55,751 bases of DNA from a virus (taxonomy: Duplodnaviria > Caudoviricetes), in the IMG/VR virus record IMGVR_UViG_3300048888_000044, positions 1-55,751 of that record, one strand, 5' to 3'. Of the stretch, positions 24,890 through 52,007 are shown piece by piece (the stretch's first letter is position 1; every line of letters begins with the position of its first letter). The position numbers and the translations under genes were made by a program. The notes beneath the pieces were generated by a model. It saw only the letters and a list, made by a program, of their open reading frames with translations. It searched no databases and was not told where the DNA came from.

Positions 24890-25075
24890 ATGCCAGTAGC
24901 CGAGAGTCGAACATACACCCGCAAACGCGATGGGAAGAGCCGCACGCAGTTCACGGTTTGGATTCTCGACGAGCTGTTGCCGGCGCTGCAAAAGGTGTCC
25001 GCTGACACGGGCAAGGCACAAACCAAGGTGCTCGCCGAGTTCGGAGAGGCCAGATTGAGGAGGGTGAAGGTATGA
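24890..25075 (+). CDS. Small DNA-binding protein (RHH-like)
   Basis: Basic N-terminus, beta strand QFTVWI then two helices. Confidence 0.45.
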   Translation: MPVAESRTYTRKRDGKSRTQFTVWILDELLPALQKVSADTGKAQTKVLAEFGEARLRRVKV

Positions 25076-25084
25076 AACGCAAAA

Positions 25085-25175
25085 TTCTAACGCCAAAGCT
25101 GAGCCGGGACGCTCGAATGAGGACGAATGACTAAACCAACGTGCCAGCGGCCTTGGCTCCAGCGTCTGGTTAGGT
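25085..25175 (-). other. attC-like site 1
   Basis: Minus strand ACCTAAC-CAGAC-GCTGGAGC...GCTCAGC-TTTGGC-GTTAGAA. Confidence 0.9.
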
Positions 25176-25448
25176 GCATTCAGTTGGGGCACTCTCCAAA
25201 TAAAGAGTCTTGTGCTTCAGGATTTCCAAGTCCGACAGGGCAAGAAACTGCGTGGCAGCGTTCAAAGATAATGGCAAAGGAAACAGCCAAACATTGTCGA
25301 AGAGCAATTTGGTGTGCGAATCTTTCTTTTTTAGCGTTTCGTATTCACTTAAAAGATACTGCCAAGACTTCCATTTATCGGTTGGTGGTTCGTGCCCGTG
25401 AGATGGTGACGGCTTTTCGACGCAAATCAGTAAGTGTGGGGTGTTCAT
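25170..25448 (-). CDS. Cassette 1 gene (canonical orientation), hypothetical
   Basis: ATG shortly after GTTAGGT; stop TAA inside ACCTAAC of attC1. Confidence 0.7.
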   Translation of the reverse strand: MNTPHLLICVEKPSPSHGHEPPTDKWKSWQYLLSEYETLKKKDSHTKLLFDNVWLFPLPLSLNAATQFLALSDLEILKHKTLYLESAPTECT

Positions 25449-25464
25449 ATTGTGAAGGGAATGC

Positions 25465-25601
25465 ACCTAACGACCGAAGCTCACCCGCGACGCTGAAGGA
25501 AAAGGAGATTCATGAAAAAGAATAAAACCGATATGAAAAAGAATAAAACCGATGGTCTAACCTCAACGCCAGCGGCGTCGCGGTGCAGCGCATGGTTAGA
25601 C
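25465..25601 (-). other. attC-like site 2
   Basis: GTCTAAC-CATGC-GCTGCACC...GGTGAGC...GTTAGGT; loop holds a 21-nt tandem duplication. Confidence 0.88.
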
Positions 25602-25904
25602 ATCATGCCGAAGCTGTTTACTCTCCAACATCTTTCTCGTCTTCTCTTCCTCGTCAGACAGCCAATTTGGTGGAGTTTGAAGGGCAGCCAGTTTATTCTT
25701 CAATGCCGTATTATCTTTCATAAGTCGCTCTATCGTTTTTATCTGTGTCGCAAGTGTGTCGTCTTGTTTGTCAGCGCGCGCCTGGTACGCTTCCGCCTCT
25801 TCCAAGCCGAGCGAAAGCTGATTGCGCAATATGGCCGTGACTGGCGGCTTCGTGTGTTCAACAATGAGTGCGTCGAGTCTTTGAAGATGTTCGATAAGAT
25901 TCAT
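25596..25904 (-). CDS. Cassette 2 gene (canonical orientation), coiled-coil protein
   Basis: ATG about 15 nt after GTT; stop TAA inside GTCTAAC of attC2. Confidence 0.75.
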   Translation of the reverse strand: MNLIEHLQRLDALIVEHTKPPVTAILRNQLSLGLEEAEAYQARADKQDDTLATQIKTIERLMKDNTALKNKLAALQTPPNWLSDEEEKTRKMLESKQLRHDV

Positions 25905-25912
25905 ACGATGAT

Positions 25913-26002
25913 GTCTAACCCCGGAACTCAGCGACCCGGCGACCAGACGAAGGACTCACCCTCAACGCCCAAGCCGGGTTCGTTGGAGTGACCTGGTTAG
26001 AA
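25913..26002 (-). other. attC-like site 3 (probable founding site of array 1)
   Basis: Plus strand GTCTAAC...ACTCAGCGACCCGGC / GCCGGGTTCGTTGGAGT...GTTAGAA. Confidence 0.85.
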
Positions 26003-26004
26003 TT

Positions 26005-26295
26005 ATGATCTCCCCTCGCCAACTCTTCCTAAAACAGCCGTTCGCATCGAACGTTCAGAACTTTATCGTGCAAGACCAGTTTCAGGCGGCACTGGCCTAC
26101 GCGTTGGCGGACATGGCCACCAGCAGCGCCATCAGCGCCGATCAATTGTCCGGGGCCAAGCTGTTCATCGCGCACCTGAACGTCATCGGGGAACGCATCG
26201 AGGAAGAAAAGTCCGTCGAGTTGCCAACCCTGAGCCAGCCTGATCCACAGCAAATGCAACGCTTGAAAGAGCAACAGAAGAAGGGTAACAAGTAA
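26005..26295 (+). CDS. Hypothetical protein preceding scaffold
   Basis: 96 aa ORF, 2 nt before scaffold ATG. Confidence 0.7.
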   Translation: MISPRQLFLKQPFASNVQNFIVQDQFQAALAYALADMATSSAISADQLSGAKLFIAHLNVIGERIEEEKSVELPTLSQPDPQQMQRLKEQQKKGNK

Positions 26296-26297
26296 TT

Positions 26298-27527
26298 ATG
26301 CCAGCCTCACTCGAAGCCCCTCCAGCACCAGCTCAAACCACTCCAGCACCAGCGCCGTCGCCGACACCACCATCTCAGCCGGTGACGATGCCATCTCCGC
26401 AACCGGCCTCGACCGCTCCGGACCCGGACAAGTTTTTCGACACCCTGGACGACGCTCCCAAGCCACCCGAGCCAAAGCCTGCCTCGACGGAGGCCACCAA
26501 GCCCGATCCCAAGACTCCGGCAAAACCGGGTGAACCCAAGCCTGGAACTGAACCAGCCAAGCCGGCCGGCGAGAAGCCGGAACAGTTCAAGAGCCCGAAG
26601 GAACTGCGCCAGGCGTACGATCGCACGTCGAACGAACTGAAGGCCAAGAACGCCGAGGTGGTGCGCCTGCTGCAACAGCTTGAGACAGCCAAGGCTGGCG
26701 TACAGCCAAACACGACCGAGATAGCGGCACTCACCGAACGGCTGGCGCGACGCGAGAAGGAGTTCTCCGAGTTGGAATCCGAGCTCAAGGTCATCCGTTA
26801 CGAGAAGTCTCCTGAGTACAAGGCCAAATTCCTTGAACCTTTCAACGCGGCGACGAAACGAGCGCATGATGCGGTCAGCCAGTTGGTGATCACCGCCGAG
26901 AACAAGCAGACTGGAGAAAAGTCCGAACGCCGGGCGACCGTGGCCGATTTCAACGCTGTGGCAAGTCTTCCCGAGGGAGCCGCTTGGCAGAAGGCCAGGG
27001 CCATATTCGGCGAGGACGCGCACCTCGTCATGCGCCACTACAACAAGTTGAGTGAGATCGCCGAACAATCACAGGTCGAGATCGAGCGTTACCAGAAGGA
27101 AGCCGCGGACAGGGAGAAGACCGACGTGGCGCGCAGTGCCACTGAACGACAGGCGGCAGAGGCAATGTCACGCAAGGCCGATGAAGGCTGGCAGAAACGA
27201 AGCAAGTGGTTTGCTCCAGTCGAGGGTGACGACGAAGGAAATGCCCTGTTGAAAACCGGGTTTGAACGCGTGGACGCTGACACTGGAGCATTGACTCCGG
27301 CACAACGCATCATCCAGCAGAGTTACGTGCGCCACGCGGCGGCGGCGTATCCCAGGTTGAAGGCCAAGGTGACGGCCTACGAGACGCGCATTGCGGATTT
27401 GGAAGCTAAGCTCAAAGAGTTCGAGAATTCCGAACCTGGACCATCGCGAACGACTCCAGGACTGAAACCCGACAAGGGGATCGCTGAAGATGCCATGACC
27501 GATCCGAAAGCTCCGTGGAACCAATAA
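26298..27527 (+). CDS. Putative capsid scaffolding protein
   Basis: Pro/Ala/Lys-rich N-terminus then long coiled coils. Confidence 0.6.
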   Translation: MPASLEAPPAPAQTTPAPAPSPTPPSQPVTMPSPQPASTAPDPDKFFDTLDDAPKPPEPKPASTEATKPDPKTPAKPGEPKPGTEPAKPAGEKPEQFKSPKELRQAYDRTSNELKAKNAEVVRLLQQLETAKAGVQPNTTEIAALTERLARREKEFSELESELKVIRYEKSPEYKAKFLEPFNAATKRAHDAVSQLVITAENKQTGEKSERRATVADFNAVASLPEGAAWQKARAIFGEDAHLVMRHYNKLSEIAEQSQVEIERYQKEAADREKTDVARSATERQAAEAMSRKADEGWQKRSKWFAPVEGDDEGNALLKTGFERVDADTGALTPAQRIIQQSYVRHAAAAYPRLKAKVTAYETRIADLEAKLKEFENSEPGPSRTTPGLKPDKGIAEDAMTDPKAPWNQ

Positions 27528-27531
27528 CCCC

Positions 27532-27559
27532 TTGACACACGGCAAGGATTTTGTAATGT
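27532..27559 (+). promoter_or_regulatory. Sigma70-type promoter
   Basis: TTGACA-N16-TAATGT directly before HTH gene (probably leaderless). Confidence 0.65.
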
Positions 27560-27817
27560 GTGTCGATGTCACGTTCAAAAGGCCATCGCACGGGTGAGAT
27601 AGAGGGAATTCGGGTTCGTCCGAGTCTGCAACTGCTGAACATCATCAGCGCGTATCCCACGACCAACGCCGCAGCCAAATTTCTTGGTCTCGCCTATTCG
27701 ACGCTCGACAGTTTCATCAATCACGAGGGAGGAATCAGCCTCGACAACGCCGCGCAGATCATCACGCGGACGGGGTTGAGTTACGAACAACTGTTCAAGC
27801 ACAAGAAGGAGAAGTGA
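27560..27817 (+). CDS. Cro/CI-type HTH regulator
   Basis: NAAAKFLGLAYSTLDSFIN...ISLD...YEQLF. Confidence 0.75.
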   Translation: MSMSRSKGHRTGEIEGIRVRPSLQLLNIISAYPTTNAAAKFLGLAYSTLDSFINHEGGISLDNAAQIITRTGLSYEQLFKHKKEK

Positions 27818-28374
27818 GCGACAAACAGAAATACGGACGAGAGGTTGCTCTAAAGGTGGCTGAAGACCTTCAATCCCGACTCAAGCTGGCGTGCCGTAGA
27901 ATGGCTGTGGCTGGATCACTGCGTCGAGGAAAAGAAACCGTTGGAGATGTTGAGCTGCTTTTTGTGCCAGTGCTGGCGGAACGGGCCGATGGACTGTTTG
28001 ACCGCCGCTTGGTGTCCGTGGCGGACGAAGTGTGCAACGAACTGTTGCGCGACGGAATTCTAGCGAAACGCCCAAACGTCAAAGGTCACTTTACGTGGGG
28101 CGAGGCAAACAAGCTGGCGGTGCATGTTGCAAGCGGAGTGCCGGTGGACTTCTTTTCCACGACCGAAGACAACTGGTGGGTGAGTCTGGTGATTCGCACT
28201 GGCAGCAAGGAAACCAACCTGAAGCTGACCAACGGAGCCATTCACCTTGGCAGGAAATTACACGCTTACGGATCGGGAGTTACGATGCCGGACGGAAGCA
28301 CTCGAAAAGCCCAAAGCGAACAGGAAGTTTTTGAACTGTGCGGAGTCCCTTACCTTGAACCGAAAGACCGATAA
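27814..28374 (+). CDS. Minimal family X DNA polymerase
   Basis: AGSLRRGKETVGDVELL, VDFF, RTGS, SEQEVFE..G.PY.EP..R. Confidence 0.9.
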   Translation: MSDKQKYGREVALKVAEDLQSRLKLACRRMAVAGSLRRGKETVGDVELLFVPVLAERADGLFDRRLVSVADEVCNELLRDGILAKRPNVKGHFTWGEANKLAVHVASGVPVDFFSTTEDNWWVSLVIRTGSKETNLKLTNGAIHLGRKLHAYGSGVTMPDGSTRKAQSEQEVFELCGVPYLEPKDR

Positions 28375-28376
28375 AC

Positions 28377-29489
28377 ATGACCACCCAACTATCCAAACCG
28401 AACACCATCGAGTCGATGCTGGCGTCGCCTCAGATACGTCAACGCTTCAACGAGATGCTCGGGCAACGCGCGCCGCAGTTCATTTCGTCGATTATCACCG
28501 TTTACCGTGGATTTTCTTCCCCGGTAGATCCGGCGAGCGTCATTGCCAGCGCCGCCATCGCCGCCACCCTGGACCTTCCGATCGAGAAGAACCTTGGTTT
28601 CGCGCACATCGTTCCTTACGCGGGCGTGGCTCAATTTCAAATGGGAGCGAAAGGACTGACCCAGTTGGCTCTTCGCAGCAATCAGTATTCGGGGATGAAC
28701 GCCGTGGCCATCAATGCGGAGTGCTTCGGTGGGTACGACAACATTGGAGATCCGATCATTCGTTGGGACTTGCTTGACGAGACCAAGGAAGCGATTGGGT
28801 ACGTGTTCGCGTGGCGTCTGACTAGCGGATTTTCAAAGACGGTTTACTGGCCCAAAGCGAAGGTGGTTGCTCACGCTGAACGATTCAGCCAGGCGTACAA
28901 GAAAAAGAAGGCTGACAGTCCGTGGATGAACAACTTTGACGCAATGGCCCTGAAAACTGTGATAGCAAACTCACTGCGACGGTGGGGTATTTTGAGCGTT
29001 CAGATGCAAACCGCGTTCAAATACGACCAGGCGATCATCAAGAACATCGACGCCGAACCGCAGTACGAGGACGATATCCCGTTCGGTCCGGCGACGACCT
29101 CCAAACTGATTTCAGGCGGGAAGAAAACCCGCAAGCAGGAGCCTCAGGAACCGACTGAGCCTGAGCAACCAATTTCCGGCGAGGGTTCTGACGAGTCCAC
29201 CGCCGGCACTCCCGCGCCCATCGCCCCTGGTTCTCCAGATCAGCTCAATGGGCCGGGAGTTGTTCCTTTGGAGCACGGTGACAGTGAGGACGCCAACGAG
29301 GTCATTCGCATCATCATGGCCAACGCGCGTGAGCTGGGAATCGAGGAAAAGTTGCTGATGATGTGGTCCAAGGCGGCGAAACTGGCTTCTGAAAAACAGA
29401 GTCAACTGAGCGACCTGGCGACGCACAAGCTCAAGAAAATCTGCGAACAATGGCCGGCCGTGGTGAAGGAGATTACCGGGAAGTCATAA
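28377..29489 (+). CDS. recT: RecT-family ssDNA annealing protein
   Basis: AATLDLPI..NLGFAHIVPY..AQFQMG.KG..QLALRS, FDAMALKTV; stop is the TAA of attC4. Confidence 0.92.
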   Translation: MTTQLSKPNTIESMLASPQIRQRFNEMLGQRAPQFISSIITVYRGFSSPVDPASVIASAAIAATLDLPIEKNLGFAHIVPYAGVAQFQMGAKGLTQLALRSNQYSGMNAVAINAECFGGYDNIGDPIIRWDLLDETKEAIGYVFAWRLTSGFSKTVYWPKAKVVAHAERFSQAYKKKKADSPWMNNFDAMALKTVIANSLRRWGILSVQMQTAFKYDQAIIKNIDAEPQYEDDIPFGPATTSKLISGGKKTRKQEPQEPTEPEQPISGEGSDESTAGTPAPIAPGSPDQLNGPGVVPLEHGDSEDANEVIRIIMANARELGIEEKLLMMWSKAAKLASEKQSQLSDLATHKLKKICEQWPAVVKEITGKS

Positions 29490-29571
29490 CGACAAGCTGA
29501 GGCACGGCGGAGAAAACCAATGACCATGAAAAGCGAACAATCCCGCCGTTGCCTCCAGCGACTGGTTCGAG
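29484..29571 (-). other. attC-like site 4
   Basis: CTCGAAC-CAGTC-GCTGGAGG-CAACGGCGG / CCGCCGTG-CCTCAGC-TTGTC-GTTATGA. Confidence 0.9.
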
Positions 29572-29953
29572 GACATTCGTGTATCCCGTCGAAGCCAATC
29601 ACTCCACCGTCCTCGGCTACGGAGCAACCTCAAAAGCTGGAAAACCAATGTGGGCGGCGCTGGTGTGGGCTGGCGCACGCAAGGACGGCGGCGCACACAT
29701 GATGAATCCGACCGGAGGCGAATACCTGCACGTCCGCGTGAAGCCTCTGACGGACGGCTGCTGGTATCGCGTCCGCTGCTCCCACTCCCGCGGAAACAGA
29801 TGGCGTGGCGGCGTCGTGGAAAATGTCGAAGTAAAACAAAAACGGGGCAAGTGGCACTGGCACGTCACTGTGTCCTCGAACGTAGAGGTGAGCGGTCAGA
29901 GTGGGCGCGATAAGGCGTCCGCCTGCAAGCCGGACTCAATGCGCCCACTCTGA
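29549..29953 (+). CDS. Cassette A gene, hypothetical
   Basis: Frame open from attC4 into attC5; start uncertain. Confidence 0.5.
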   Translation: MPPATGSRTFVYPVEANHSTVLGYGATSKAGKPMWAALVWAGARKDGGAHMMNPTGGEYLHVRVKPLTDGCWYRVRCSHSRGNRWRGGVVENVEVKQKRGKWHWHVTVSSNVEVSGQSGRDKASACKPDSMRPL

Positions 29954-29976
29954 TTCGCTCGACCGATTTGTTAGAC
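29875..29976 (-). other. attC-like site 5
   Basis: Arms TCAGAGTGGGCGC / GCGCCCACTCTGA with extrahelical bases. Confidence 0.92.
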
Positions 29977-29984
29977 GACGATTT

Positions 29985-30236
29985 ATGAAACAAGACAACC
30001 AATGGCATGACGGAATCGTGTATCAGCACTCTGATGATGGCAAATTCGTGCTCGCTGAAAACTTAGAGGAAGCTGACAAAGACAATCGCCCGATGACGAT
30101 GGAAGGGGGAGGCGTGAAATACCAAGACGTGAAATACAACTGGAATCGCGGACAGCCAATCGTGGACTTCGGCGATTTCAAAATGGTCATCACAGACATC
30201 GGGTTCGTAAAACTGGACGAAACGCAAGTCGTCTAA
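29985..30236 (+). CDS. Cassette B gene, hypothetical
   Basis: ATG just after GTTAGAC; stop in GTCTAAC. Confidence 0.7.
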   Translation: MKQDNQWHDGIVYQHSDDGKFVLAENLEEADKDNRPMTMEGGGVKYQDVKYNWNRGQPIVDFGDFKMVITDIGFVKLDETQVV

Positions 30237-30338
30237 CGAAAAGCTGACGCACAGCCGCGATTAACTATGAGCACGAAATTAACCTGTGACGCTGGACTGC
30301 AACAGACCCCGGCTGTTGCGTCCGGCGTCTTGTTAGCA
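30231..30338 (-). other. attC-like site 6
   Basis: GCTGACGCACAGCCG / CGGCTGTTGCGTCCGGC arms flanked by AAC and GTT. Confidence 0.9.
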
Positions 30339-30617
30339 CCCAAAACCCTCGAAGAACTCATAAACCAAGCCGCCGAAGTGCTGCCTGACTGGTGGGAGAT
30401 ACGAATCGAAGTGCAGCAAGGATACGGGCAAGCAATCGTGACGCGGCCAGACGGCACGGAAGTGCAAATGTCCGATGGCGAGAACGACATCCGAGAACAG
30501 TTTCGTGATGCGCTGGGTCTGGTGCGTGATGAACTGGAAGCAGACAAACTCTTGGGTGCTAACGACAAGCTCAGAGATGGCGCGACAGAGAGGCGTCCAT
30601 ATTCACAGGAAACGTAA
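30267..30617 (+). CDS. Cassette C gene, hypothetical
   Basis: Starts in attC6 loop, ends in attC7 loop. Confidence 0.7.
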   Translation: MSTKLTCDAGLQQTPAVASGVLLAPKTLEELINQAAEVLPDWWEIRIEVQQGYGQAIVTRPDGTEVQMSDGENDIREQFRDALGLVRDELEADKLLGANDKLRDGATERRPYSQET

Positions 30618-30648
30618 TCGCGCCATTCTCTGAAGCGCATGGTTAGAG
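30557..30648 (-). other. attC-like site 7
   Basis: GCTCAGAGATGGCGCGA / TCGCGCCATTCTCTGAAGC arms. Confidence 0.92.
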
Positions 30649-30661
30649 CACGTCAAATACA

Positions 30662-30976
30662 ATGAAAACACTGACACCAGGACACAAATACGAACTCGAA
30701 AACTTCGAGGCCAAAGACCAACCCGGTCAGGTCATCCAGTTCATCGAGAAAACTCCAGTCGCCGGCGAACCCGGCAAACTGGTCACACTCAACGACGGCA
30801 CGACCAACGAGGAAGTGCTCAAGATGCTGATAGACCGCTGCCAGTCTCTCTACGACAAATTCCCGTCGGAGGAAACGGCGTGCTCCATCAGCCATCTCAA
30901 ATCGGCGCTATACGCGCAACAGTCCCGGACATACGAACGCTCTCAACGCGGCGTCGAAGGGAAGCACCTCAAGTGA
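30662..30976 (+). CDS. Cassette D gene: Tad1/Acb2-like anti-defence sponge
   Basis: H.Y...IQF...GTTNEEVL..LIDR...F.SEETAC.I.HL..AL....RT.ER..RGVEG matches the Tad1 pattern. Confidence 0.7.
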   Translation: MKTLTPGHKYELENFEAKDQPGQVIQFIEKTPVAGEPGKLVTLNDGTTNEEVLKMLIDRCQSLYDKFPSEETACSISHLKSALYAQQSRTYERSQRGVEGKHLK

Positions 30977-31001
30977 CAACCGAGCACGGGGAGACTAAGT
31001 G

Positions 31002-31127
31002 CTCTAACGCAGAAGTGAGCGGACAGCCGCCGAGTGCGACTCGCAATGACACCAAAAATCTATGAGCAAAAATAACGAATCGAAACGGAAAAGCGGGGCG
31101 GCTGTTCGCTCCACTGACGGGTTAGGC
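31002..31127 (-). other. attC-like site 8
   Basis: AGTGAGCGGACAGCCGCC / GGCGGCTGTTCGCTCCACT arms. Confidence 0.9.
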
Positions 31128-31325
31128 ATCGGCACAATCCACGACCCAAAAGCTATGTTCCTCCGCAACTACGTCGGGGAAGCAACGTGCGGAAAACTCA
31201 AATACGAAATTAGCACTGGAATGAACGGCTCGCCAATCGTCCACAGCAAGAAATCCGGCAAGTGGTTCTCGCTATCATGGCAAGACATTCTGGCGCTCGC
31301 GGAGAAGGCAGGCGTAGATGCCTAA
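31062..31325 (+). CDS. Cassette E gene, hypothetical
   Basis: Starts in attC8 loop; stop in GCCTAAC. Confidence 0.7.
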   Translation: MSKNNESKRKSGAAVRSTDGLGIGTIHDPKAMFLRNYVGEATCGKLKYEISTGMNGSPIVHSKKSGKWFSLSWQDILALAEKAGVDA

Positions 31326-31444
31326 CGCAGAAGTCAGCGACAGCCGCCGAGAGAAACCATGAACGACACTCTGACATTGGAACAGCCAGCAACGCCTCGA
31401 AACGGAGAGCGGGGCGGCTGTTCGTCTGCACTGATTGGTTCGGC
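31320..31444 (-). other. attC-like site 9
   Basis: AGTCAGCGACAGCCGCC / GGCGGCTGTTCGTCTGCACT; similar to attC8. Confidence 0.9.
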
Positions 31445-32048
31445 ATTTCGGTGTGTCGTAGCTGACCCTCCGTGGCTGCCAACGATGGCACTGGTGAATA
31501 GTCCTGCCAGCGGTATCGGTGCACCGAAGGCAAGTCCGCAACGCCACTACCCGACGATGAGCGTCGAGGAAATCTGCGCCCTGAATCCGCCGTCTGCCAC
31601 TCAATCTCACCTCTGGCTCTGGTGTCTGAATCAGCACACGGATTGGGGTCACACCGTCGCAAAGGCGTGGGGCTTTGAAGTGTTCCAGATGGTGACGTGG
31701 TGCAAACCCGGCCTCGGAACTGGCCGATTCCAATGCAACAGCGAGCAAGTGCTACTCTGCCGGAAAGGAACTCGCCACGGCAATCCGTTCGGGATGACCG
31801 GCGGCACATACTTCAACTGGCCGCGTGGCCGACACTCTGAAAAGCCGGATTCATTCTACGACCTCGTGGAGCGAGTATCACCTGGCCCGCGTCTGGAAAT
31901 GTTCGCTCGCACCCGCAGACTCGGCTGGTCTGCATGGGGCAACGAAATCTCCAGCGACGTAGAAATGCCGAACGCAGAGTCCAGCTATCGGAGTGGGCCG
32001 GTAGCGGCGTCGAATAAACCGGCGGCTCAATCGGCCCACTCCGATTAG
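31359..32048 (+). CDS. Cassette F gene: MT-A70-family adenine methyltransferase
   Basis: ADPPW, HLWLW, HSEKP, RLEMFAR, GWSAWGNE. Confidence 0.9.
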   Translation: MNDTLTLEQPATPRNGERGGCSSALIGSAFRCVVADPPWLPTMALVNSPASGIGAPKASPQRHYPTMSVEEICALNPPSATQSHLWLWCLNQHTDWGHTVAKAWGFEVFQMVTWCKPGLGTGRFQCNSEQVLLCRKGTRHGNPFGMTGGTYFNWPRGRHSEKPDSFYDLVERVSPGPRLEMFARTRRLGWSAWGNEISSDVEMPNAESSYRSGPVAASNKPAAQSAHSD

Positions 32049-32067
32049 CTGCGACGATTGGTTAGCT
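31967..32067 (-). other. attC-like site 10
   Basis: GTCCAGCTATCGGAGTGGGCCG / CGGCCCACTCCGATTAGCTGCGAC with two extrahelical bases. Confidence 0.93.
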
Positions 32068-32074
32068 GCTTTTT

Positions 32075-32503
32075 ATGGGAATGTTTGACGACATCAAGTG
32101 CAAGTATCCGCTGACGGTGGAAGGTGCGAACGCGCTCGCCTACCAGACGAAGGACACCGACGCGCAGCAACTCGACAACTACGAGATTCGAGAGGACGGA
32201 ACGCTGTGGCACGAGAACTACGATCCTCGATTTGAGGAGCACAAAGAAGCGCCTCTCGGCTTCTACATCCACCGCGACAACCTGAGATGGGAGCAAGTGC
32301 CCATAACTGGCGAAGTCCGATTCTACACGATGTATGGCGTCAAAGACGGGCAACTGGTGAACGCCAACGCCCGTGACGGCTGGCTGGAATGGTCGGCCTA
32401 CTTCGCGGACGGAAAACTCAATCAAATTCACCTGCTCGAAAACCGAGCGCCAGATGCAGCTAACGATGAGTTCAGGCGCACAGACCCGCCGTTGAAACCA
32501 TGA
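32075..32503 (+). CDS. Cassette G gene, phage-type hypothetical
   Basis: MGMFD...QTKD...Y.I.EDG.L...TG.VRFY...F.DG.L; stop in attC11 loop. Confidence 0.8.
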   Translation: MGMFDDIKCKYPLTVEGANALAYQTKDTDAQQLDNYEIREDGTLWHENYDPRFEEHKEAPLGFYIHRDNLRWEQVPITGEVRFYTMYGVKDGQLVNANARDGWLEWSAYFADGKLNQIHLLENRAPDAANDEFRRTDPPLKP

Positions 32504-32592
32504 CGCCACTCGAACAATCCAAGCCTGCCGACGAAGCCCGCGACTCTGTGCTGCGAAGCGGGGCTGTGTCGTCCTGCAACGATTTGTTAGGG
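32458..32592 (-). other. attC-like site 11
   Basis: GTTCAGGCGCACAGACCCGC / GCGGGGCTGTGTCGTCCTGCAAC. Confidence 0.88.
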
Positions 32593-33360
32593 CGCGTTTT
32601 GGTGGCGTGCGAATATAGCGGAACTGTCCGCGATGCGTTCAAACTCAAGGGATGGGATGCTTGGTCGTGTGACTTGCTTCCAACCGATGTTCCTGGACAA
32701 CACCATCAAGGAGACGTGGCAGAACTTCTGAAACAGCAATGGGACATAATCATCGCCTTCCCACCATGCACCTATCTCTGCTCGTCTGGAATGCACTGGA
32801 CTGTGCGAGGCAAGCGCGATCCTCAACTGACGGAAGACGCGCTCAGTTTCGTGCGCTCATTCCTCGATGCTCCCTGTGAACACATCGCGCTCGAAAATCC
32901 AGTCGGCTGCATCTCGACGCGCATCCGAAAACCGGACTGCGTGATTCACCCTTGGCAATTCGGACACCCCGAATCCAAGACAACCTGCCTATGGCTCAAA
33001 AATCTTCCGGCGCTCGTGCCGACAAATATCCTGACAAAGCCAGCAAGCGGCCACTGGGAAAACCAATGCTCAACCGGCTCGCAAAACCGACTAGGGCCAA
33101 GCCCAACCCGGTGGAAGGAACGAAGCAAAACATATCAAGGCATCGCCTCCGCGATGGCCGCACAGTGGAGCGCGTTCGTATTAAATTCGCGCACGACTGC
33201 CAAGAGTGTCCCGATTGCGGAGAACCTTTTTGCTTGGAGTGCCAGGAACACTACGCCGACTGCCGATGTGTCGGGCCAAGCAACGCCGAAGATGATGGAT
33301 GGACGCTCATTGAACGGCGTGGAGTGCTCTACGGCGAACGCAACGCGCCCTAACAAATGA
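32500..33360 (+). CDS. Cassette H gene: C5-cytosine methyltransferase-like
   Basis: VLVACEYSG, SCDL, FPPCTYL, ENPVG, HPWQFGH; ATG supplied by attC11 loop. Confidence 0.8.
   Translation: MTPLEQSKPADEARDSVLRSGAVSSCNDLLGRVLVACEYSGTVRDAFKLKGWDAWSCDLLPTDVPGQHHQGDVAELLKQQWDIIIAFPPCTYLCSSGMHWTVRGKRDPQLTEDALSFVRSFLDAPCEHIALENPVGCISTRIRKPDCVIHPWQFGHPESKTTCLWLKNLPALVPTNILTKPASGHWENQCSTGSQNRLGPSPTRWKERSKTYQGIASAMAAQWSAFVLNSRTTAKSVPIAENLFAWSARNTTPTADVSGQATPKMMDGRSLNGVECSTANATRPNK
33165..33353 (+). CDS. Cassette H second ORF, Cys-rich Zn finger
   Basis: CQECPDCGEPFCLECQEHYADCRC; stop in CCCTAAC. Confidence 0.55.
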   Translation: MERVRIKFAHDCQECPDCGEPFCLECQEHYADCRCVGPSNAEDDGWTLIERRGVLYGERNAP

Positions 33361-33366
33361 TTAGAC
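33348..33366 (-). other. attI-like simple site closing array 2
   Basis: Minus strand GTCTAAT-CATTT-GTTAGGG (L, 5-bp spacer, R); no attC arms. Confidence 0.6.
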
Positions 33367-33369
33367 AAC

Positions 33370-33678
33370 ATGGCGCGCCGAGCAAATAGCCGAAATGTCT
33401 GGTGGCAAAATCACTACGCCAAACTGCGCGCCGCCAAGGAACGCAAGCGTCTTGCCGATCCTGATTTCAGCCAGGAAACGAATCCCCTAGTGCCAATTCC
33501 GCGCCCCAAAGCGCGCTTCCGTATCTTGATTGAGGATCAGCAGGTGGGTGACCGGCTCCAGATCAAACTTTATCCCACTCCCTTCCGCGGCCAGTTTGCG
33601 ACGGGCGATGGGATCCGCAGCGTGCGCCAGCTCGAACGCGCCTTTGGCCATATTTTGAGAACAGCTTTTACCGTATGA
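33370..33678 (+). CDS. Hypothetical basic protein
   Basis: 102 aa, coupled to next gene. Confidence 0.6.
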   Translation: MARRANSRNVWWQNHYAKLRAAKERKRLADPDFSQETNPLVPIPRPKARFRILIEDQQVGDRLQIKLYPTPFRGQFATGDGIRSVRQLERAFGHILRTAFTV

Positions 33679-34769
33679 AAAGAACCCCATTCAGCGCCTC
33701 AAACTTTTCACGCCGTCGTCTCTGCAACGGCAGTCTCCCGATGGAGGACGGGTTGCCCGAGGTCGAGAACGAGTGGTCGGCGGAAGGGACGCTGCTGCAC
33801 CACGCCGCGGCGACACAAGTTCACACGGGTCTCAACCAATATCAGTCAGAAGTGGTTCAGCAAGCACTCGGTCATCGAAATCGGTTCATCGACACTCTCG
33901 CTCCACCAGACCCGGACGACTGGAAATTCTTCTTCGAGATCGAACTGCCGTACACTCTCAAGAACAAGACCGTGTTCCTGAACCACGCGGACTACGTGGC
34001 AGTGTTCCCAAAGGCCGTCGCCATCGTGGACTACAAATTCGGCTACGAGGAAGTCGATGCGCCGGAACTGAACGAGCAACTGGCGGTTTACATTGCCTGC
34101 TTGGCCGAGAAATTTGACGTACCGGAATACTACGGCCTGATAATCCCCAGGTTTGGCAATCCGGCGCCACCGGTGAAGTACACGCGCGCGGAGATTCCTG
34201 CCCTGCGAAAGATGATCGAGGACGTGTACGACGCCTGCACACCGAAGGCACCACGCACGCCTGGGGTGAGGCAGTGTACCTATTGCAAAGGTTTTCAGCT
34301 TGGTTTGTGCAAAGAGGCAATCAGCATGGCGATGAATCCAGTCCACAAGTTCAGCGGAAAGTTGCTTCAGAATCCCGGCCAAGTATTGCAATCACTCCCT
34401 GCGACTGACCGCACCAAACTCTTCGACGCCTTCGCGATGGCCGACAAGTTGCGCAAGACGTTCGTGGCCGCAGTCAAACCGATGATTGAGCGAGATCCTG
34501 AGTTCGTTCCTGGATACCGACTCAGCAAGGAGGGTGAGACAAGAAGCAAGGTTACGGATTTGTTCAGCTTAGAGGAAAGGCTGTGGAAAAAATTGAATTT
34601 GTCCCACGAAGGATTTGTGGCTCACTGCTCTATTTCCAACACGGAATTGAAAGATTTGGTTCGCGAGATTTCGGGCCTAAAAGGCAAAGAGCTGGACGCA
34701 AAGGTTGCTGAGTTGACTAAGGGACTGGTGGATACGACGCCGGTGGAAAGGAGTTTGGAGAGGGTATGA
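33675..34769 (+). CDS. Cas4-like PD-(D/E)XK exonuclease (DUF2800-like)
   Basis: C..S, AEGTLLH, AD, IVDYKFG, N.QL..Y, C..C....C. Confidence 0.8.
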   Translation: MKRTPFSASNFSRRRLCNGSLPMEDGLPEVENEWSAEGTLLHHAAATQVHTGLNQYQSEVVQQALGHRNRFIDTLAPPDPDDWKFFFEIELPYTLKNKTVFLNHADYVAVFPKAVAIVDYKFGYEEVDAPELNEQLAVYIACLAEKFDVPEYYGLIIPRFGNPAPPVKYTRAEIPALRKMIEDVYDACTPKAPRTPGVRQCTYCKGFQLGLCKEAISMAMNPVHKFSGKLLQNPGQVLQSLPATDRTKLFDAFAMADKLRKTFVAAVKPMIERDPEFVPGYRLSKEGETRSKVTDLFSLEERLWKKLNLSHEGFVAHCSISNTELKDLVREISGLKGKELDAKVAELTKGLVDTTPVERSLERV

Positions 34770-34996
34770 AAGTCAAAGAACTGATCGTGGCTTTATCATC
34801 TTTGCCACCGGACGCGAACGTGACTCATTTATGGGATGGAGAAGCCCGCACTGCAATCAATCATGTTTGGCTTGCTCGCAATGGTGAGGTTGTTACGGCC
34901 GACGACAACATGGTTTGCTATTCTGAAGGGAGCCGTCCCTGCACTGCTCCGACACAAGCCCAAGATAGATTTTGGAGAACTCCAAACTCAGAGTGA
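34766..34996 (+). CDS. Small hypothetical protein
   Basis: MKVKELI..L..LP.DA.V motif. Confidence 0.65.
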   Translation: MKVKELIVALSSLPPDANVTHLWDGEARTAINHVWLARNGEVVTADDNMVCYSEGSRPCTAPTQAQDRFWRTPNSE

Positions 34997-36429
34997 AAAC
35001 AGCCATGTGTTGTTTGGGCCGGTTCGGGGACATCATCAACACGCTGCCGATGGCGTATGAGGACAGCCGGGTTCGTGGCGCAGTGGACTGGATCGTGTCG
35101 GAAGAGTTCGCCAGTGTTCTCGAAGGTTGCTCCTACGTGCGGCCGGTGATCTACACAGGGCAGTACTGGGACTTGCAAGGAGCGGTGAAACAATTCAGTC
35201 CTCGTTACGCAGAACTACGTATTGTCCAGCCGTGGTCGAGCAATTATCCGGGCGTCCAGTTGACCGAGAGCTTCTGCAAGAGCGCCTGGTGCCAAGTTGG
35301 GCGTAGAGATTGGCCGGGAAGGCTCGTGTTTGATCGGCGGGATCGTGCTCGGGAGGAAAGGTTATGGTCAACGATGTTGAATTCGGTCTCAATGAATCCT
35401 GACCACAAACCTGTCCTGCTGTGCGTTGACAGCACCTCCAGTCCTTTCAAGCACCGGTTGGAACTAATCACCTCTTTGCGTAAACGGTTTGGGGCTGAAA
35501 ACGTTTGGATTCTGGACCCCAAGGCCACGCGCATCTACGACCTGCTCGGGCTCTACGAACGCGCTGCGTGCCTCGTGACGGTGGATACGGCGCACCTGCA
35601 CCTTTCCTGGGCTGTGCCTCGGCTGCCGGTGGTGGCTCTGATAGCCGACACGCCGACCATGTGGCACGGAACAGCCACGAGGCCGAATCAATCGTTTCGA
35701 TGTCGCTACGCGGATTACCCGGCGCGCGCGGAAGAACTGACGCGAGCCGTCGATCAAGCCATTCAACCACGCCCGGAACAGAAGCTGTGGCATTGCTGGA
35801 GCGATTACCAGCGGTCCGGAGACTCGTCGCACCGTCACGATCAAGTCTGTGTGTCCTGGCTGACCGAGTACAACAAGGGTCATTGGGAGCGTGGAGCGTA
35901 TTTCAACGGCAAAGGCCGGCAATTGGGCAACCGAGAGCTTCACGCGGTCAAAGACATCCTCAACCATGCCGCAGACAAGGCGCAGGACAGCGACCTGCTC
36001 GTTCTGACGAACGACGACACCGGTTTTGCGGTCGGAATCACGGAAACGCTCTTGGACGTCGCTGCGTGGCCTCTGCCAGCGGCGTACGCGCATCGGTTGG
36101 ACTGGGACAATAGCTGTCCAACCATTCTCGACGGCGAGACGTATCCTGGGGTTGACCTGTTCGCGATCGGCGTCAAGTTGTGGAAGCAATGGCGGCTGGA
36201 GTTCCCTGACTGCGTAATTGGCGCCGAGCAATGGGATCTGGCCATGCTGGCGTTCATGCGACGCGTTGGAGCTCCTAACCTGGCCGGCGCGATCTGGCAC
36301 CAATCTCACGCGCCAAGCTGGGTCGGTTTCAACTCGGTCGTGGCCAATAATCATAACCGATTGGCTTGCGGGAAATGGTTTGATTCTCAAGGCATTACGG
36401 CAGACCAGGTGATTAACAACGAGTTATGA
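34993..36429 (+). CDS. GT9 (heptosyltransferase-like) glycosyltransferase with second GT-like domain
   Basis: LGRFGDIINTLP, LVTVDTAHLHL; C-terminal LTNDD..G.DLF..WD..WH..H. Confidence 0.75.
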   Translation: MKTAMCCLGRFGDIINTLPMAYEDSRVRGAVDWIVSEEFASVLEGCSYVRPVIYTGQYWDLQGAVKQFSPRYAELRIVQPWSSNYPGVQLTESFCKSAWCQVGRRDWPGRLVFDRRDRAREERLWSTMLNSVSMNPDHKPVLLCVDSTSSPFKHRLELITSLRKRFGAENVWILDPKATRIYDLLGLYERAACLVTVDTAHLHLSWAVPRLPVVALIADTPTMWHGTATRPNQSFRCRYADYPARAEELTRAVDQAIQPRPEQKLWHCWSDYQRSGDSSHRHDQVCVSWLTEYNKGHWERGAYFNGKGRQLGNRELHAVKDILNHAADKAQDSDLLVLTNDDTGFAVGITETLLDVAAWPLPAAYAHRLDWDNSCPTILDGETYPGVDLFAIGVKLWKQWRLEFPDCVIGAEQWDLAMLAFMRRVGAPNLAGAIWHQSHAPSWVGFNSVVANNHNRLACGKWFDSQGITADQVINNEL

Positions 36430-36761
36430 ACACTTTGGGCGGCGCGCGTAGCGATAAAGACACTGACTGCTCTGGTGGTCCATGCCGATCACTCATCTGT
36501 TGGTGTCTCGCCGAGACCGCGCGTCCGTCCTCTATCTATGTCACTCCGGAACTGTGTTCTTTTCAAACGTTTCTGGCGGCAGAGCGTGCCCTCAATGACT
36601 TCGTGGAAAACATGGCTCATAACTATTCACTAAGGGTGCGATCTGTATTTGATCCACTACCACTCACCGCGAGCGAGCAATGGATGTATGACCGATTGCG
36701 AGGGCAACTCGAAGCTGCAAAAGCCGGATACCGAGAGATGGTGAATCGTTGCAAGAAGTAG
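36426..36761 (+). CDS. Hypothetical protein
   Basis: Coupled ORF. Confidence 0.5.
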   Translation: MNTLGGARSDKDTDCSGGPCRSLICWCLAETARPSSIYVTPELCSFQTFLAAERALNDFVENMAHNYSLRVRSVFDPLPLTASEQWMYDRLRGQLEAAKAGYREMVNRCKK

Positions 36762-36762
36762 T

Positions 36763-37290
36763 ATGACTTGGGAATCCATCGACGGCTGGTTCGACTTCGC
36801 CGACGTTTACGACATGATTGCGTCCAAACTCGTGCCCGGCGACATCGTGGTCGAGGTCGGCAGTTATTTGGGTCGGTCAACGGCGTACCTATCGAGCAAG
36901 GTGCCAGCAGACGTGACGATCATCGCCGTGGATCCGTGGCCGCATTTCTCGCCCATTGCTGAACGTGTCGAGGTGAGAGAGGATTTGTACGGTTGCTTCC
37001 TGTCCAACATGTTACAGTGCGGCTGCAAGAACGTCTTACCCCTACGCAAGACTAGCATCGAGGCATCAAAGTGCCTCAGAAACGATTTGGCAGCGGTTTT
37101 CCTGGACGGCGACCACAGTTACGAGGCTGTGAAGGCGGAAATCCCTGCCTGGCTGTCCAAGATCAGGCCCGGAGGCATTCTGGCCGGCCACGACTTCGGA
37201 GCGGAGCACGAGGGCGTCAAACAGGCTGTGATCGAGCTGCTTGGCTCTAAATTTTCGCTCATGGGCCAATGTTGGGTGGTGCAATTGTGA
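36763..37290 (+). CDS. SAM methyltransferase (Methyltransf_24-like)
   Basis: VEVGSYLGRST, FLDGDHSYE, GGILAGHDF. Confidence 0.88.
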   Translation: MTWESIDGWFDFADVYDMIASKLVPGDIVVEVGSYLGRSTAYLSSKVPADVTIIAVDPWPHFSPIAERVEVREDLYGCFLSNMLQCGCKNVLPLRKTSIEASKCLRNDLAAVFLDGDHSYEAVKAEIPAWLSKIRPGGILAGHDFGAEHEGVKQAVIELLGSKFSLMGQCWVVQL

Positions 37291-38063
37291 CCTGGACCTC
37301 GTTCACCATCGTTTGCAACGAAGCGGAGTGGATCGAGGCGCAGGTCCGCTCGTGCGCCGAGTTCTACGACCGAGTGGTGGTGGTGGACGGCGCTGCAAAG
37401 GGTGACGGTTACGGCAAGGGAAACGGGTCCAAGCTCACTGGTGGTCAAATGGGATCAACCGACGGCACTCAAGACATTCTCAGGCGTCTAGAGAAGGAGA
37501 TTCCAAAACTGAAGGTGGTTTATGCCACTAGACCGTGGCAGGGAAAGACTTTCATGTGCAATGCCGCATTGTTCCACGTGCCACACGGCTGGCTGATGCA
37601 AAGGGACGTGGACGAGTTCTGGCACCTCGACGATTTGAAACGCCTGCGCGACGTGGTGGAAGACTCAGACTACACGGACGCAGAGTTTTACGCGTACCAC
37701 TACTGGGGAGATCGCCGGCATCACATGCGCCTATCCAAGGAAATCTGGGGAAACCAACTGCCTTGGCGCCGGCTGTTTCGATACTCGGGCGAGAGGTGGG
37801 AAAGCCATGAACCTCCCAAGCTGGTACGAGAAGACGAGAACGTGTTGAGCATGGACGAAACTCGCGCGCTTGGCTTGATAATGCACCATTACAGCTATTG
37901 CGACCTTGGCCAACTGCGGAAGAAGGAGATTTTTTACAGCATCGAAGGCCAGTTGGTGCCGACGATCGAGCAATGGCGTCGTGATCCGGAGTCAGTGCCG
38001 AAGAACGCGGATCTCGTGGAGTTTACTGGAGTTCACCCCGTCAATCTGCCCGTCGTAGAGTAA
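37287..38063 (+). CDS. GT2-family glycosyltransferase
   Basis: VVVDG...STDGT, DVDEFW, HHYSY. Confidence 0.8.
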   Translation: MTWTSFTIVCNEAEWIEAQVRSCAEFYDRVVVVDGAAKGDGYGKGNGSKLTGGQMGSTDGTQDILRRLEKEIPKLKVVYATRPWQGKTFMCNAALFHVPHGWLMQRDVDEFWHLDDLKRLRDVVEDSDYTDAEFYAYHYWGDRRHHMRLSKEIWGNQLPWRRLFRYSGERWESHEPPKLVREDENVLSMDETRALGLIMHHYSYCDLGQLRKKEIFYSIEGQLVPTIEQWRRDPESVPKNADLVEFTGVHPVNLPVVE

Positions 38064-51258: not shown

Positions 51259-51266
51259 GATTTATT

Positions 51267-51623: not shown

Positions 51624-51649
51624 CTTCGGGGACCATGTTACGGTGAACG

Positions 51650-52006: not shown

Positions 52007-52007
52007 A

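Follow-up and report, generated by a model that had tools for sequence, protein, structure and literature searches.

A Tad1-family gene in an integron-type cassette array of a phage that lacks an integron integrase

The DNA analysed here, a window of 55,751 nucleotides, is a complete phage of about 56 kb that carries a CALIN, an array of integron-type cassettes that lacks an integrase. Its main features are collected in Table 1. Between the genes for RecT and an exonuclease lies an accessory island that is missing from the related phage L061, in which recT and exo abut; L061 has no attC-like site at either array position, so it provides no 'empty site' for a before-and-after comparison. Within the island we confirmed, inside the predicted cassette and on the plus strand, the 104-residue ORF that a preliminary description had called a cassette-borne, Tad1/Acb2-like anti-defence gene, and the three stretches quoted there, GTTNEEVLKMLIDR, FPSEETACSISHLKSAL and RTYERSQRGVEG, are all present in its translation. 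That description also portrayed the array as a mobile counter-defence arsenal, which is borne out in part: of about nine cassettes, a recognisable role can be given to three, namely the Tad1-like gene and two DNA methyltransferases, but not to the others; one further cassette ORF (32075-32503) resembled only unnamed phage clusters in a protein-atlas comparison, with scores of at most 0.86. A six-frame search of the window revealed no candidate integron integrase, the 71 ORFs scanned gave no Phage_integrase-type Pfam match, and an integron integrase is likewise absent from three complete phage genomes with such arrays.

Table 1. Coordinates of the Tad1-family gene, the attC-like sites and the surrounding features in the window
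Feature	Start	End	Strand	Description
Tad1-family ORF	30662	30976	+	104 aa; sequence homology and predicted fold
Predicted single-gene cassette	30563	31007	+	C of upstream TAA/C to TAA of next site, by homology to canonical attC; holds attC-like site, right box GTTAGAGCAC (30642-30651), ORF and complementary left box GTGCTCTAA(C) (30999-31008)
attC-like site upstream of Tad1 ORF	30557	30648	+	Covariance model, 65.8 bits
attC-like site downstream of Tad1 ORF	31002	31127	+	Covariance model, 59.3 bits
Array B	29484	32592	+	Eight co-oriented attC-like sites by covariance model: 29484-29571, 29875-29976, 30231-30338, 30557-30648, 31002-31127, 31320-31444, 31967-32067, 32458-32592
Array A	25085	26002	+	Three attC-like sites (25085-25175, 25465-25601, 25913-26002) bounding two cassettes without assigned role
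Lone left box GCGCCCTAAC	33345	33354	+	Read by eye
Accessory island	29490	33674	+	4.2 kb
MT-A70 DNA methyltransferase cassette	31359	32048	+	Flanking boxes GTTCGGCATT and AATGCCGAAC complementary 10/10
DNA methyltransferase cassette	32500	33360	+	phrog_757, E 7e-66
RecT gene	28377	29489	+	Left flank of island; TAA stop within left box of first site
Exonuclease gene	33675	34769	+	Right flank of island; DUF2800/PD-(D/E)XK

The sites that bound these genes have the architecture of integron attC sites. A covariance model, used in place of a crude regular-expression and pairing scan that missed sites, gave 11 matches in the window with E-values of 2.3e-4 or below, all on the plus strand, and a next best match at E 0.094; five of the 11 sites were outside its training set, and the result is far beyond chance. 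The reference traits of attC are an R box with AAC/GTT, an unpaired central spacer, an L box, extrahelical bases separated by a 6-bp stem, a conserved distal T, a variable terminal structure and a length of 57-141. The alignment, pair counts and DNA folds show this architecture: the boxes contain AAC/GTT, the spacer is unpaired, a 6-bp stretch separates the two bulged bases (spacing read by eye) and the top varies. The sites in the window are 88-137 nt long. Paired cells amount to 93.7% compared with 72.6% in shuffles, none of 500 of which attained the observed value, and compensatory changes occur at 13 of 19 pairs.

A second signature comes from the boxes of neighbouring sites. In integron cassettes the crossover falls within the R box, which makes the right box of a site complementary to the left box of its successor. 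Successive pairs in the window scored 7, 7, 3, 7, 7, 7, 7, 7, 7 and 6 out of 7 (7/7 in eight of ten pairs), as against 0-5 for a site's own boxes and 0/100 non-adjacent pairs at 7/7. The same box-swap pattern is found in two other phage arrays (L081 and L072) and in two bacterial arrays (L092 and L095). Right-to-left box spacing within the arrays is 203-533 nt, with single genes separating the sites. By eye, the second methyltransferase cassette is closed by the lone left box, which is complementary to GTTAGGGCGC, the right box belonging to site 32458-32592. Since homology to the attC bottom strand places the crossover between A and C, the interval around the Tad1-like gene is a predicted cassette that begins at the C of the upstream TAAC left box and ends at the final A of TAA within the downstream left box, precisely the ends first proposed for it. 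The attC-like architecture, the covariation and the box-swap signature together uphold the description of the gene as cassette-borne.

Repeated hairpins could also be RNA elements that serve processing, stabilisation or translational coupling, in which case the gene would be no mobile cassette. The sites are co-oriented with transcription and all lie between ORFs, the phage has no integrase, and four downstream ORFs have start codons within hairpin loops; several predicted ORFs begin inside the preceding site, and the MT-A70 ORF has no later start codon. However, the box swap couples one site to the next across an ORF and does not link the two boxes within a site, hardly any wobble pairs occur, no Rfam family matches the sites, and the bulge geometry agrees with the attC bottom-strand rules described by Nivina et al. 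(2016). The same site family also forms bacterial arrays whose genes lie on the opposite strand. We consider the RNA explanation very improbable and treat the hairpins as putative recombination sites. The short direct repeat TAACG.A.AAG was separately considered as a promoter or ribosome-site motif and ruled out, being the left arm of long imperfect hairpins.

The orientation of the genes relative to these sites is unexpected for integron biology. The plus strand of the window carries the bottom-strand form of attC, in which the 5' arm bears AAC and the 3' arm the bulges, and the cassette ORFs of the phage do not lie on the attC top strand, as they do in the canonical orientation. In viral arrays, Pfam matches fall in 13 of 61 same-strand ORFs and in 0 of 37 on the opposite strand, whereas bacterial arrays of the same site family have them in none of 19 same-strand ORFs and in 4 of 23 ORFs on the other strand. 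According to Nivina et al. (2016), cassettes facing the promoter had not been seen. The placement of ORFs on the attC bottom strand in phage arrays, the reverse of bacterial arrays, is apparently new.

The site family extends well beyond this phage. A Rhodocyclaceae metagenome-assembled genome (G001) contains one array of at least 12 such sites and another of at least 14, together with an integron integrase (TIGR02249, 351 bits; cut-off 265), the big arrays not being adjacent to the integrase gene. An IMG/VR contig (G005) carries an IntI-like gene, at 249.6 bits below that cut-off, about 2 kb from its array. The site nearest the G001 integrase was set aside: its orientation could not be made to fit the canonical layout, and AAC is missing from its left box. 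Site 30557-30648 shares 92% identity (81/88) with the site that precedes a Tad1-like gene in two unrelated viral contigs, L001 and L002, and Tad1-like genes stand behind such sites in further viral and metagenome contigs. Sites of this family are missing from most Tad1-like loci (52 of 59 in IMG/VR and 72 of 80 in metagenomes). A Tad1 profile gave no match in three bacterial genomes carrying the same site family, a result that carries little weight.

The ORF itself encodes a Tad1-family protein, not Acb2. A profile of 39 homologues matched Tad1 chains in the PDB at E 3.8e-12 (8kbb), 2.2e-9 (7uav) and 2.6e-9 (8kbe), the six distinct Tad1 chain sequences that it matched falling between 3.8e-12 and 2.6e-9, and no Acb2 chain appeared among the 22 PDB sequences found at E <= 1. 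By tblastn, the protein named 'Tad1' of Bacillus phage SBSphiJ7 was matched at E 6e-6 with 37.5% identity over query residues 29-104. In a single-sequence phmmer search, the 104-residue query matched solved Tad1 chains at E 9.2e-4 to 1.6e-3; these query-only values, at only about 1e-3, weigh against the sponge reading. The Pfam model Acb2_Tad1_hairpin (PF24729), a detection model that sets no biochemical criterion, was matched by 15 of the 39 aligned homologues (best E 6.1e-7); it did not match the query at E <= 10, nor when the query stood as the first row of the homologue alignment. A Pfam scan of the query alone returned only DUF1410 at E 0.065, and its PHROGs match is an unnamed family, phrog_2428.

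Structure prediction points the same way. The AlphaFold2 model (pLDDT 94.0, pTM 0.80) places a five-stranded N-terminal sheet (residues 2-44, by DSSP on the model) before a two-helix hairpin of residues 49-66 and 70-95. Among the Foldseek matches listed, those with E < 0.01 are all Tad1 entries (probability 1.00, TM 0.52-0.69, identity 21-25%), the next match has E 0.57, and Acb2 does not occur; the better matches superpose with an rmsd of 4.3-5.5 A, two CmTad1 chains with one of 12-14 A. The profile and structure comparisons that had been suggested as checks resolve the original 'Tad1/Acb2-like' label: the Tad1 half stands on both sequence and fold, and the Acb2 half falls, as the query shows an N-terminal beta-sheet and neither the profile matches nor the Foldseek rows listed include an Acb2 chain. 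The hairpin domain name that Acb2 has in common with this family (PF24729), and its own activity as a sponge, are the points of likeness; the Tad1-type sheet sets the query apart.

Modelled as two copies, the protein is predicted to form an interface with an ipSAE of 0.77 against 0.01 for the best control, a partner pLDDT of at least 83 and at least 98% of contacts common to three runs. Of solved same-chain pairs, 20 of 30 attained the mark used for a dimer, and of single chains 1 of 23 did so. Memory of, or likeness to, solved Tad1 complexes may account for this outcome. The predicted interface takes in residues 72 and 89.

Some homologues raise the question of a virion or other structural protein that shares just the hairpin domain, since several Bacillus phages carry relatives annotated 'putative structural protein' and the 230-aa 'gp184' chain of 8y6v matches the profile at E 8e-4. 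We give this little credence: the protein aligns with Tad1 from end to end, those relatives that are best characterised are sponges, and the gene sits in a recT/exo/methyltransferase region away from the large structural-looking ORFs.

Assignment to Tad1 opens the question of what the protein binds. Alongside SBSphiJ7 Tad1, CbTad1 (7UAV/7UAW/8SMD) and CmTad1 (8KBB-8KBD), it has the beta-sheet followed by a two-helix hairpin, a hairpin alignment over about 60-80 residues, the pocket arginines, the G-x-E-G C-terminus and the predicted dimer; it differs in length, at 104 residues against 123-138 for the Tad1 chains. In the phmmer alignments, R109 and R113 of the CbTad1 pocket for gcADPR and dinucleotides are retained as R89 and R93, and the other two of its four residues are changed (F82 to L63, N92 to T72). 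Both residues of the trinucleotide pocket, a trait of the characterised Tad1 members and not of every homologue, are altered (CbTad1 R90 to E70, T97 to S77), as are all six at the hexamer interface that forms the trimer of dimers (CmTad1 K96/Q98/E99/M102/W103/K106 to H78/K80/S81/Y84/A85/S88). Two deviations noted at the outset, ET in place of EN and a missing Trp after AL, are among these, as T at position 72 and A at position 85 where the alignments show N and W in characterised Tad1 proteins. The suggestion that ligand specificity may differ is reasonable and can be narrowed: the changed residues concentrate in the cyclic-trinucleotide pocket and hexamer interface. By comparison, Li et al. 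found the dinucleotide/gcADPR site substituted in only 12% of homologues and the trinucleotide site in 6%.

These changes recur in part of the family. Among the best 150 family representatives, R89 is conserved in 146 and R93 in 144, the G-x-E-G end is near-invariant, and L occupies position 63 in 141; T occurs at position 72 in 25, and position 70 varies widely (R 56, K 21, E 16, P 12, D 9), being R or K in just 77. The combination E70/T72/A85 is found in 64 of the 120 closest cluster representatives. The nearest Tad1 relatives are borne by contigs of about 52-58 kb (P0007, P0014, P0024 and P0029). Helix 2 in this type is as conserved as in the canonical type (0.91), and 14 positions within residues 64-95 are fixed differently between the two, each more than 80% conserved. 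At the DNA level, helix 2 is 49.5% identical to that of L001, as against 92% in the flanks. From sequence comparison, the E70/T72/A85 relatives form a conserved Tad1 sub-clade with a rebuilt helix 2. Because this sub-clade has replaced the helix 2 surface, its cyclic-trinucleotide pocket is probably lost (R90 being Glu70) and the canonical hexamer perhaps lost. With two of four dinucleotide-pocket residues, both trinucleotide residues and all six hexamer residues different, the ligand could also be none, or of a kind not yet recognised.

The same observations bear on whether a Tad1-fold protein has here taken on a changed job, its rebuilt helix 2 surface binding either a host protein or a signal that Tad1 proteins are not known to bind. 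The 14 differently fixed positions, the drop in helix 2 DNA identity, which resembles a module swap, and the variability of position 70 would all fit such a change, and a 2025 preprint reports that, of 84 sponge homologues tested, 19 had no inhibitory effect on any of seven systems. The near-invariance of both pocket arginines and of the G-x-E-G end speaks against it, as does the persistence of residues 72 and 89 at the predicted dimer interface, and on balance we think a changed job improbable.

We favour instead a Tad1-family signal sponge. The protein would be at least a dimer that sequesters a host immune nucleotide in a pocket at the dimer interface, centred on near-invariant Arg89 and Arg93 (CbTad1 R109 and R113) and on Thr72 (N92). 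Its likeliest ligand would be gcADPR made by TIR proteins, a cyclic dinucleotide or both, and Thoeris- or CBASS-type defence would be blunted. A host integron integrase would exchange the cassettes by cutting TAA/C in folded single-stranded sites. Taken as a whole, a Tad1-family signal sponge on an integrase-less phage cassette array, with the mechanism proposed here, is a reading that we hold to be probable.

Parts of this picture have precedents. CALINs with methyltransferase genes have been described in phages before. Qi et al. 2023 (PMC9892861) reported 17, with five methyltransferase cassettes, in phages that are virulent or uncharacterised; of six phage attC sites tested with IntI1, five recombined. 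Those arrays and ours have in common co-oriented attC sites around single genes, no integrase and DNA methyltransferase cassettes; neither the abstract nor section 3.4 of that paper mentions a signal-sponge cassette, and the arrangement described there differs from the present phage, whose ORFs lie on the strand with the bottom-strand site form and whose sites are common to Rhodocyclaceae arrays. Two preprints describe anti-phage defence encoded by bacterial integron cassettes (bioRxiv 10.1101/2024.07.02.601686 and 10.1101/2024.07.02.601719). As presented there, these too are attC-bounded single-gene cassettes with genes of phage-bacterium conflict, but they hold defence genes on the top strand with an integrase present, whereas the phage array holds a counter-defence gene and no integrase. 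A signal sponge as an integron cassette is apparently new. Phages of the T4 type have their own mobile regulatory cassettes, known as PeSL, which are promoter-plus-stem-loop units shuffled by homologous recombination. Like the present cassettes, these involve single accessory genes in hyperplastic regions, with stem-loop repeats on either side, that are shuffled between genomes; unlike them, the present sites show integron attC architecture and a site-specific box-swap signature.

A bolder reading, which we offer as possible though doubtful, is that phages of integron-bearing Betaproteobacteria keep a 'mirror-image' pool of cassettes of their own, with genes on the attC bottom strand. They would rely on the host's integrase to pass counter-defence genes (Tad1-type sponges, DNA methyltransferases and Mom) between unrelated phages, the Tad1 hairpin would be swapped as a module inside this pool, and the E70/T72/A85 type would bind a signal other than the known Tad1 ones. 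Genes on the bottom strand would therefore be expressed in phage arrays, and antisense and silent if a host integron captured them.

These findings matter on several levels. First, the Tad1 sub-clade is a natural experiment on the question of which surfaces of a sponge can be remodelled with the core pocket retained. Second, new anti-defence genes could be spotted by a simple genomic flag, their location within a phage attC array, most cassettes there having no known function. Finally, if the overall reading is true, these arrays would be a phage-side counterpart to the defence stores of integrons, with attC-bounded counter-defence cassettes movable between unrelated phages, and would give phages a concrete, testable route to acquire and reshuffle anti-defence genes.

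The plus-strand ORF singled out in the preliminary description, whose translation contains every string quoted there, is filed under the Tad1 family rather than Acb2 on evidence from sequence, fold and dimer prediction. Pfam does not recognise the query itself, and PHROGs places it in an unnamed family (phrog_2428, E 1.1e-16). In a phmmer search across all PDB chains, the matches ahead of Sec24D (E 0.17) were six distinct sequences of Tad1 chains (E 9.2e-4 to 1.6e-3). A search among 5.8 billion proteins returned 1446 relatives at E <= 1e-3; a profile built from 39 of them matched CmTad1 (8kbb, 3.8e-12), CbTad1 (7uav, 2.2e-9) and 8kbe (2.6e-9), with no Acb2 chain among the 22 PDB sequences at E <= 1. 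Fifteen of the 39 homologues match Pfam PF24729, the 'Acb2/Tad1 hairpin domain', which the query does not. With tblastn, 37 of 50,697 phage records were matched; Bacillus phage SBSphiJ7, annotated as Tad1, aligned over residues 29-104 (E 6e-6, 37.5% identity). In the AlphaFold2 model (pLDDT 94.0, pTM 0.80), two long helices come after five strands, and the Foldseek matches listed with E < 0.01 are Tad1 entries only (probability 1.00, TM 0.52-0.69, identity 21-25%), the best match after them having E 0.57. Two-copy prediction backs a dimer (ipSAE 0.77 versus 0.01 for the best control; at least 98% of contacts in common between runs; partner pLDDT at least 83), a mark that 20 of 30 solved same-chain pairs also reach, as does 1 of 23 single chains, but as Tad1 complexes are already solved, this pass may reflect likeness only. 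Profile and structure comparison, two of the checks proposed in the preliminary description, agree, and its 'Tad1/Acb2-like' label stands for Tad1 and falls for Acb2.

The query represents a rebuilt sub-type. Using phmmer alignments and the residue numbers of Li et al. (bioRxiv 10.1101/2023.11.15.567273), we mapped F82, N92, R109 and R113 of the CbTad1 gcADPR/dinucleotide pocket to L63, T72, R89 and R93, and R90 and T97 of its cyclic-trinucleotide pocket to E70 and S77. At the CmTad1 hexamer interface, K96, Q98, E99, M102, W103 and K106 become H78, K80, S81, Y84, A85 and S88. The E70/T72/A85 combination is common to 64 of the 120 closest cluster representatives, and 37 carry R/N/W, the canonical set; in both groups the conservation of helix 2 (residues 69-96) stands at 0.91, and 14 positions within residues 64-95 are fixed differently between them. 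The changed residues are thus conserved rather than decayed. The family is large: profile searching among 1.84 billion representatives yielded 4221 matches at E <= 1e-3. Among the best 150 of these, a sample skewed towards the query's relatives, 146 retain R89 and 144 retain R93. N occupies position 72 in 114 of them and T in 25; at position 70 there are 56 with R, 21 with K and 16 with E, and only 73 have W at position 85. From these alignments we infer that conservation of function lies with the dimer-interface pocket, and that the three-fold pocket is probably dispensable or retargeted. A 2025 preprint reports inhibition of CBASS and type I Thoeris by Tad1 homologues; of 84 sponge homologues, 19 acted on none of seven systems.

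The short repeat seen where ORFs end proved to form the left arm of long, imperfect hairpins. An 18-mer taken from it occurs in 16 IMG/VR contigs, each of which shows the full element. This consists of CTAAC, an unpaired spacer of 7 nt, a box that pairs and a variable stem-loop (57-95 nt overall), after which come the return arm, bearing two bulged bases, another spacer, and GTTAG or a close variant. In an alignment of 22 copies, pairing is found in 93.7% of cells, a value that none of 500 shuffles attained (72.6%), and slid controls gave 25-41%; 13 of 19 pairs show compensatory changes, and wobble pairs are rare. A covariance model whose training set left out five of the 11 window sites recovered all 11, on the plus strand, at E <= 2.3e-4 with filters off, the best match beyond them having E 0.094. 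Nivina et al. 2016 (PMC5027507) set out the features of the recombining bottom strand: its 5' arm carries AAC, with the cut falling between A and C; the opposite arm bears the extrahelical bases; the distal T is conserved; 6 bp of stem separate the bulges; the spacer measures 5-6 nt; and the length is 57-141. The window plus strand agrees with these rules, the bulge spacing being judged by eye.

Features of the window and of other contigs.
Feature	Coordinates	Strand	Details
Array A	25085-26002	+	three sites; covariance model
ORFs bounded by array A	about 25127-25525; about 25512-25991		two ORFs
Pol-beta-type ORF	27814-28374		186 aa; palm (E 4e-8) and thumb (E 4e-4) domains
Array B	29484-32592	+	eight sites; covariance model
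Region missing from L061	29490-33674
Cassette sharing the L113 box pair	about 29986-30236		within 29875-30240
Predicted Tad1 cassette	30563-31007
Tad1-family ORF	30662-30976	+	104 aa
Stretches with an ORF start in a site's loop	29484-29571; 30231-30338; 31002-31127; 31320-31460
MT-A70 start region	31320-31460
Modification genes outside arrays	36763-38063; 47661-48728		Methyltransf_24 protein, family-2 glycosyltransferase, N6_N4 DNA methylase (E 3e-52)
AP2-domain and receiver-domain proteins	50773-52472		E 1.3e-9; E 9e-9
IntI-like recombinase, contig L193	26664-27590		TIGR02249, 249.6 bits
Region compared with Tad1 gene, L001	4001-4342
Tad1-like locus, L113	660-1110

The decisive test is the box swap, the pattern expected when circular cassettes cross over within the R box. 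Scored as complementarity between a right box and the next site's left box at seven positions outside AAC/GTT, neighbouring window sites gave 7, 7, 3, 7, 7, 7, 7, 7, 7 and 6, the 3 being the pair across the 3.5-kb gap between the two arrays. The two boxes of one site score 0-5, and none of 100 non-adjacent pairs reached 7. With 11 co-oriented sites and 7/7 in eight of ten neighbouring pairs, the description of the gene as cassette-borne is borne out. The boxes flanking the Tad1 ORF are GTTAGAGCAC and GTGCTCTAAC; as the plus strand obeys the cut-site rules drawn from Nivina et al. 2016, the predicted Tad1 cassette coincides exactly with the interval proposed in the preliminary description. In array A, the left box that comes first, AAATTCTAAC, complements the right box that comes last, GTTAGAATTA, at 6 of 7 positions, which would fit the entry of cassettes into one ancestral site; the related phage L061 has only about 146 bp at this position, without a site.

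Open frames in viral arrays lie on the model's strand in 12 of 52 intervals, opposite in 2 and ambiguously in 38; in bacterial arrays the counts over 33 intervals are 1, 22 and 10. Pfam matches follow suit, with 13 of 61 same-strand and 0 of 37 opposite-strand ORFs in viral arrays, and 0 of 19 and 4 of 23 in bacterial ones. Phage cassette genes are thus encoded by the bottom strand of attC and have the site on their 5' side, the reverse of canonical integron cassettes. After four sites the longest ORF starts within the site's variable loop. For MT-A70, there is no ATG, GTG or TTG between the right box and the DPPW motif, so either the site would encode part of the N-terminus or the start codon would be unusual. 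In the intergenic stretches of the gene train (window 25000-38000), where overlaps by ATGA or GTGA are frequent, no Shine-Dalgarno-like purine run is visible 5' of most starts; the Tad1 ATG is preceded by 13 nt of A-rich sequence.

Comparison with other contigs points to mobility. In L061 (55,865 bp), whose RecT is 84% identical to the window's, exo directly follows recT, and no site occurs in the 15 kb compared. Flanking genes common to the window and 59 IMG/VR Tad1-like loci are weak matches only: three loci match MT-A70 at 26% and one matches the exonuclease at 23%. Sites of the window's family are present in seven of these 59 and in 8 of 80 metagenome loci. At the metagenome contig L113, a Tad1-like protein 87% identical to the query follows a different site, again with complementary boxes on both sides; these, GTTAGACGAC and GTCGTCTAAC, are the pair bracketing another cassette in the window. 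In the unrelated viral contigs L001 and L002, the upstream site with right box (81/88) and the first 30 codons (83/90) are each 92% identical to the window's, versus only 49.5% (47/95) for helix 2 DNA; in L001, helix 1 is at 66% and the last 25 nt at 92%. The gene is thus an internal mosaic, and the uneven identity suggests that the Tad1 hairpin is exchanged as a module between variants.

The 18-mer is also present in 15 bacterial genome contigs, ten with covariance-model matches, which by record title are mostly Betaproteobacteria (Rhodocyclaceae, Azonexus, Cognatazoarcus, Burkholderiales). A Rhodocyclaceae MAG has one array of at least 12 sites and another of at least 14, again showing the box-swap signature; it also has a gene that matches integron integrase at 351 bits, above the cut-off of 265, and does not adjoin the big arrays. 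No integron integrase gene was found in the window or in three complete phage genomes carrying arrays. The likeliest hosts are therefore Betaproteobacteria, and the likeliest recombinase is a host integrase. One IMG/VR contig, L193, encodes a full-length IntI-like tyrosine recombinase, just below the 265 cut-off, about 2 kb past an array of at least eight sites of the window's family; with a viral completeness rating of only 39%, this contig could represent either bacterial DNA or a phage that carries a complete integron.

The recognisable cassettes in the Tad1 array are three: Tad1, a phrog_757 methyltransferase with E 7e-66, and MT-A70 with E 1.4e-17. Among 46 same-strand cargo ORFs, drawn from the 15 of 16 contigs found by site motif alone that gave an ORF, six have Pfam matches, and five of these are enzymes of DNA modification: two hits to N6_N4 methylase and one each to Dam, Methyltransf_11 and Mom. 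Qi et al. 2023 (PMC9892861) describe 17 phage CALINs, five methyltransferase cassettes, and recombination of phage attC sites by IntI1; full-text literature searches found no paper combining attC or CALIN with Tad1. The window record (99% completeness rating, 54% G+C, 55,751 bases) also encodes a small Pol-beta-type nucleotidyltransferase, so assigned from its DNA polymerase beta palm and thumb domains. Its ORF is missing in L061, where its two neighbours abut, and may be another accessory insertion. An AP2-domain protein and a response-regulator receiver domain protein lie further downstream.

With modification genes outside its arrays as well, DNA modification is a heavy investment by this phage. 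Alongside it, the phage carries a putative Tad1-family sponge of a rebuilt sub-type on a predicted integron-type cassette, within a phage CALIN.
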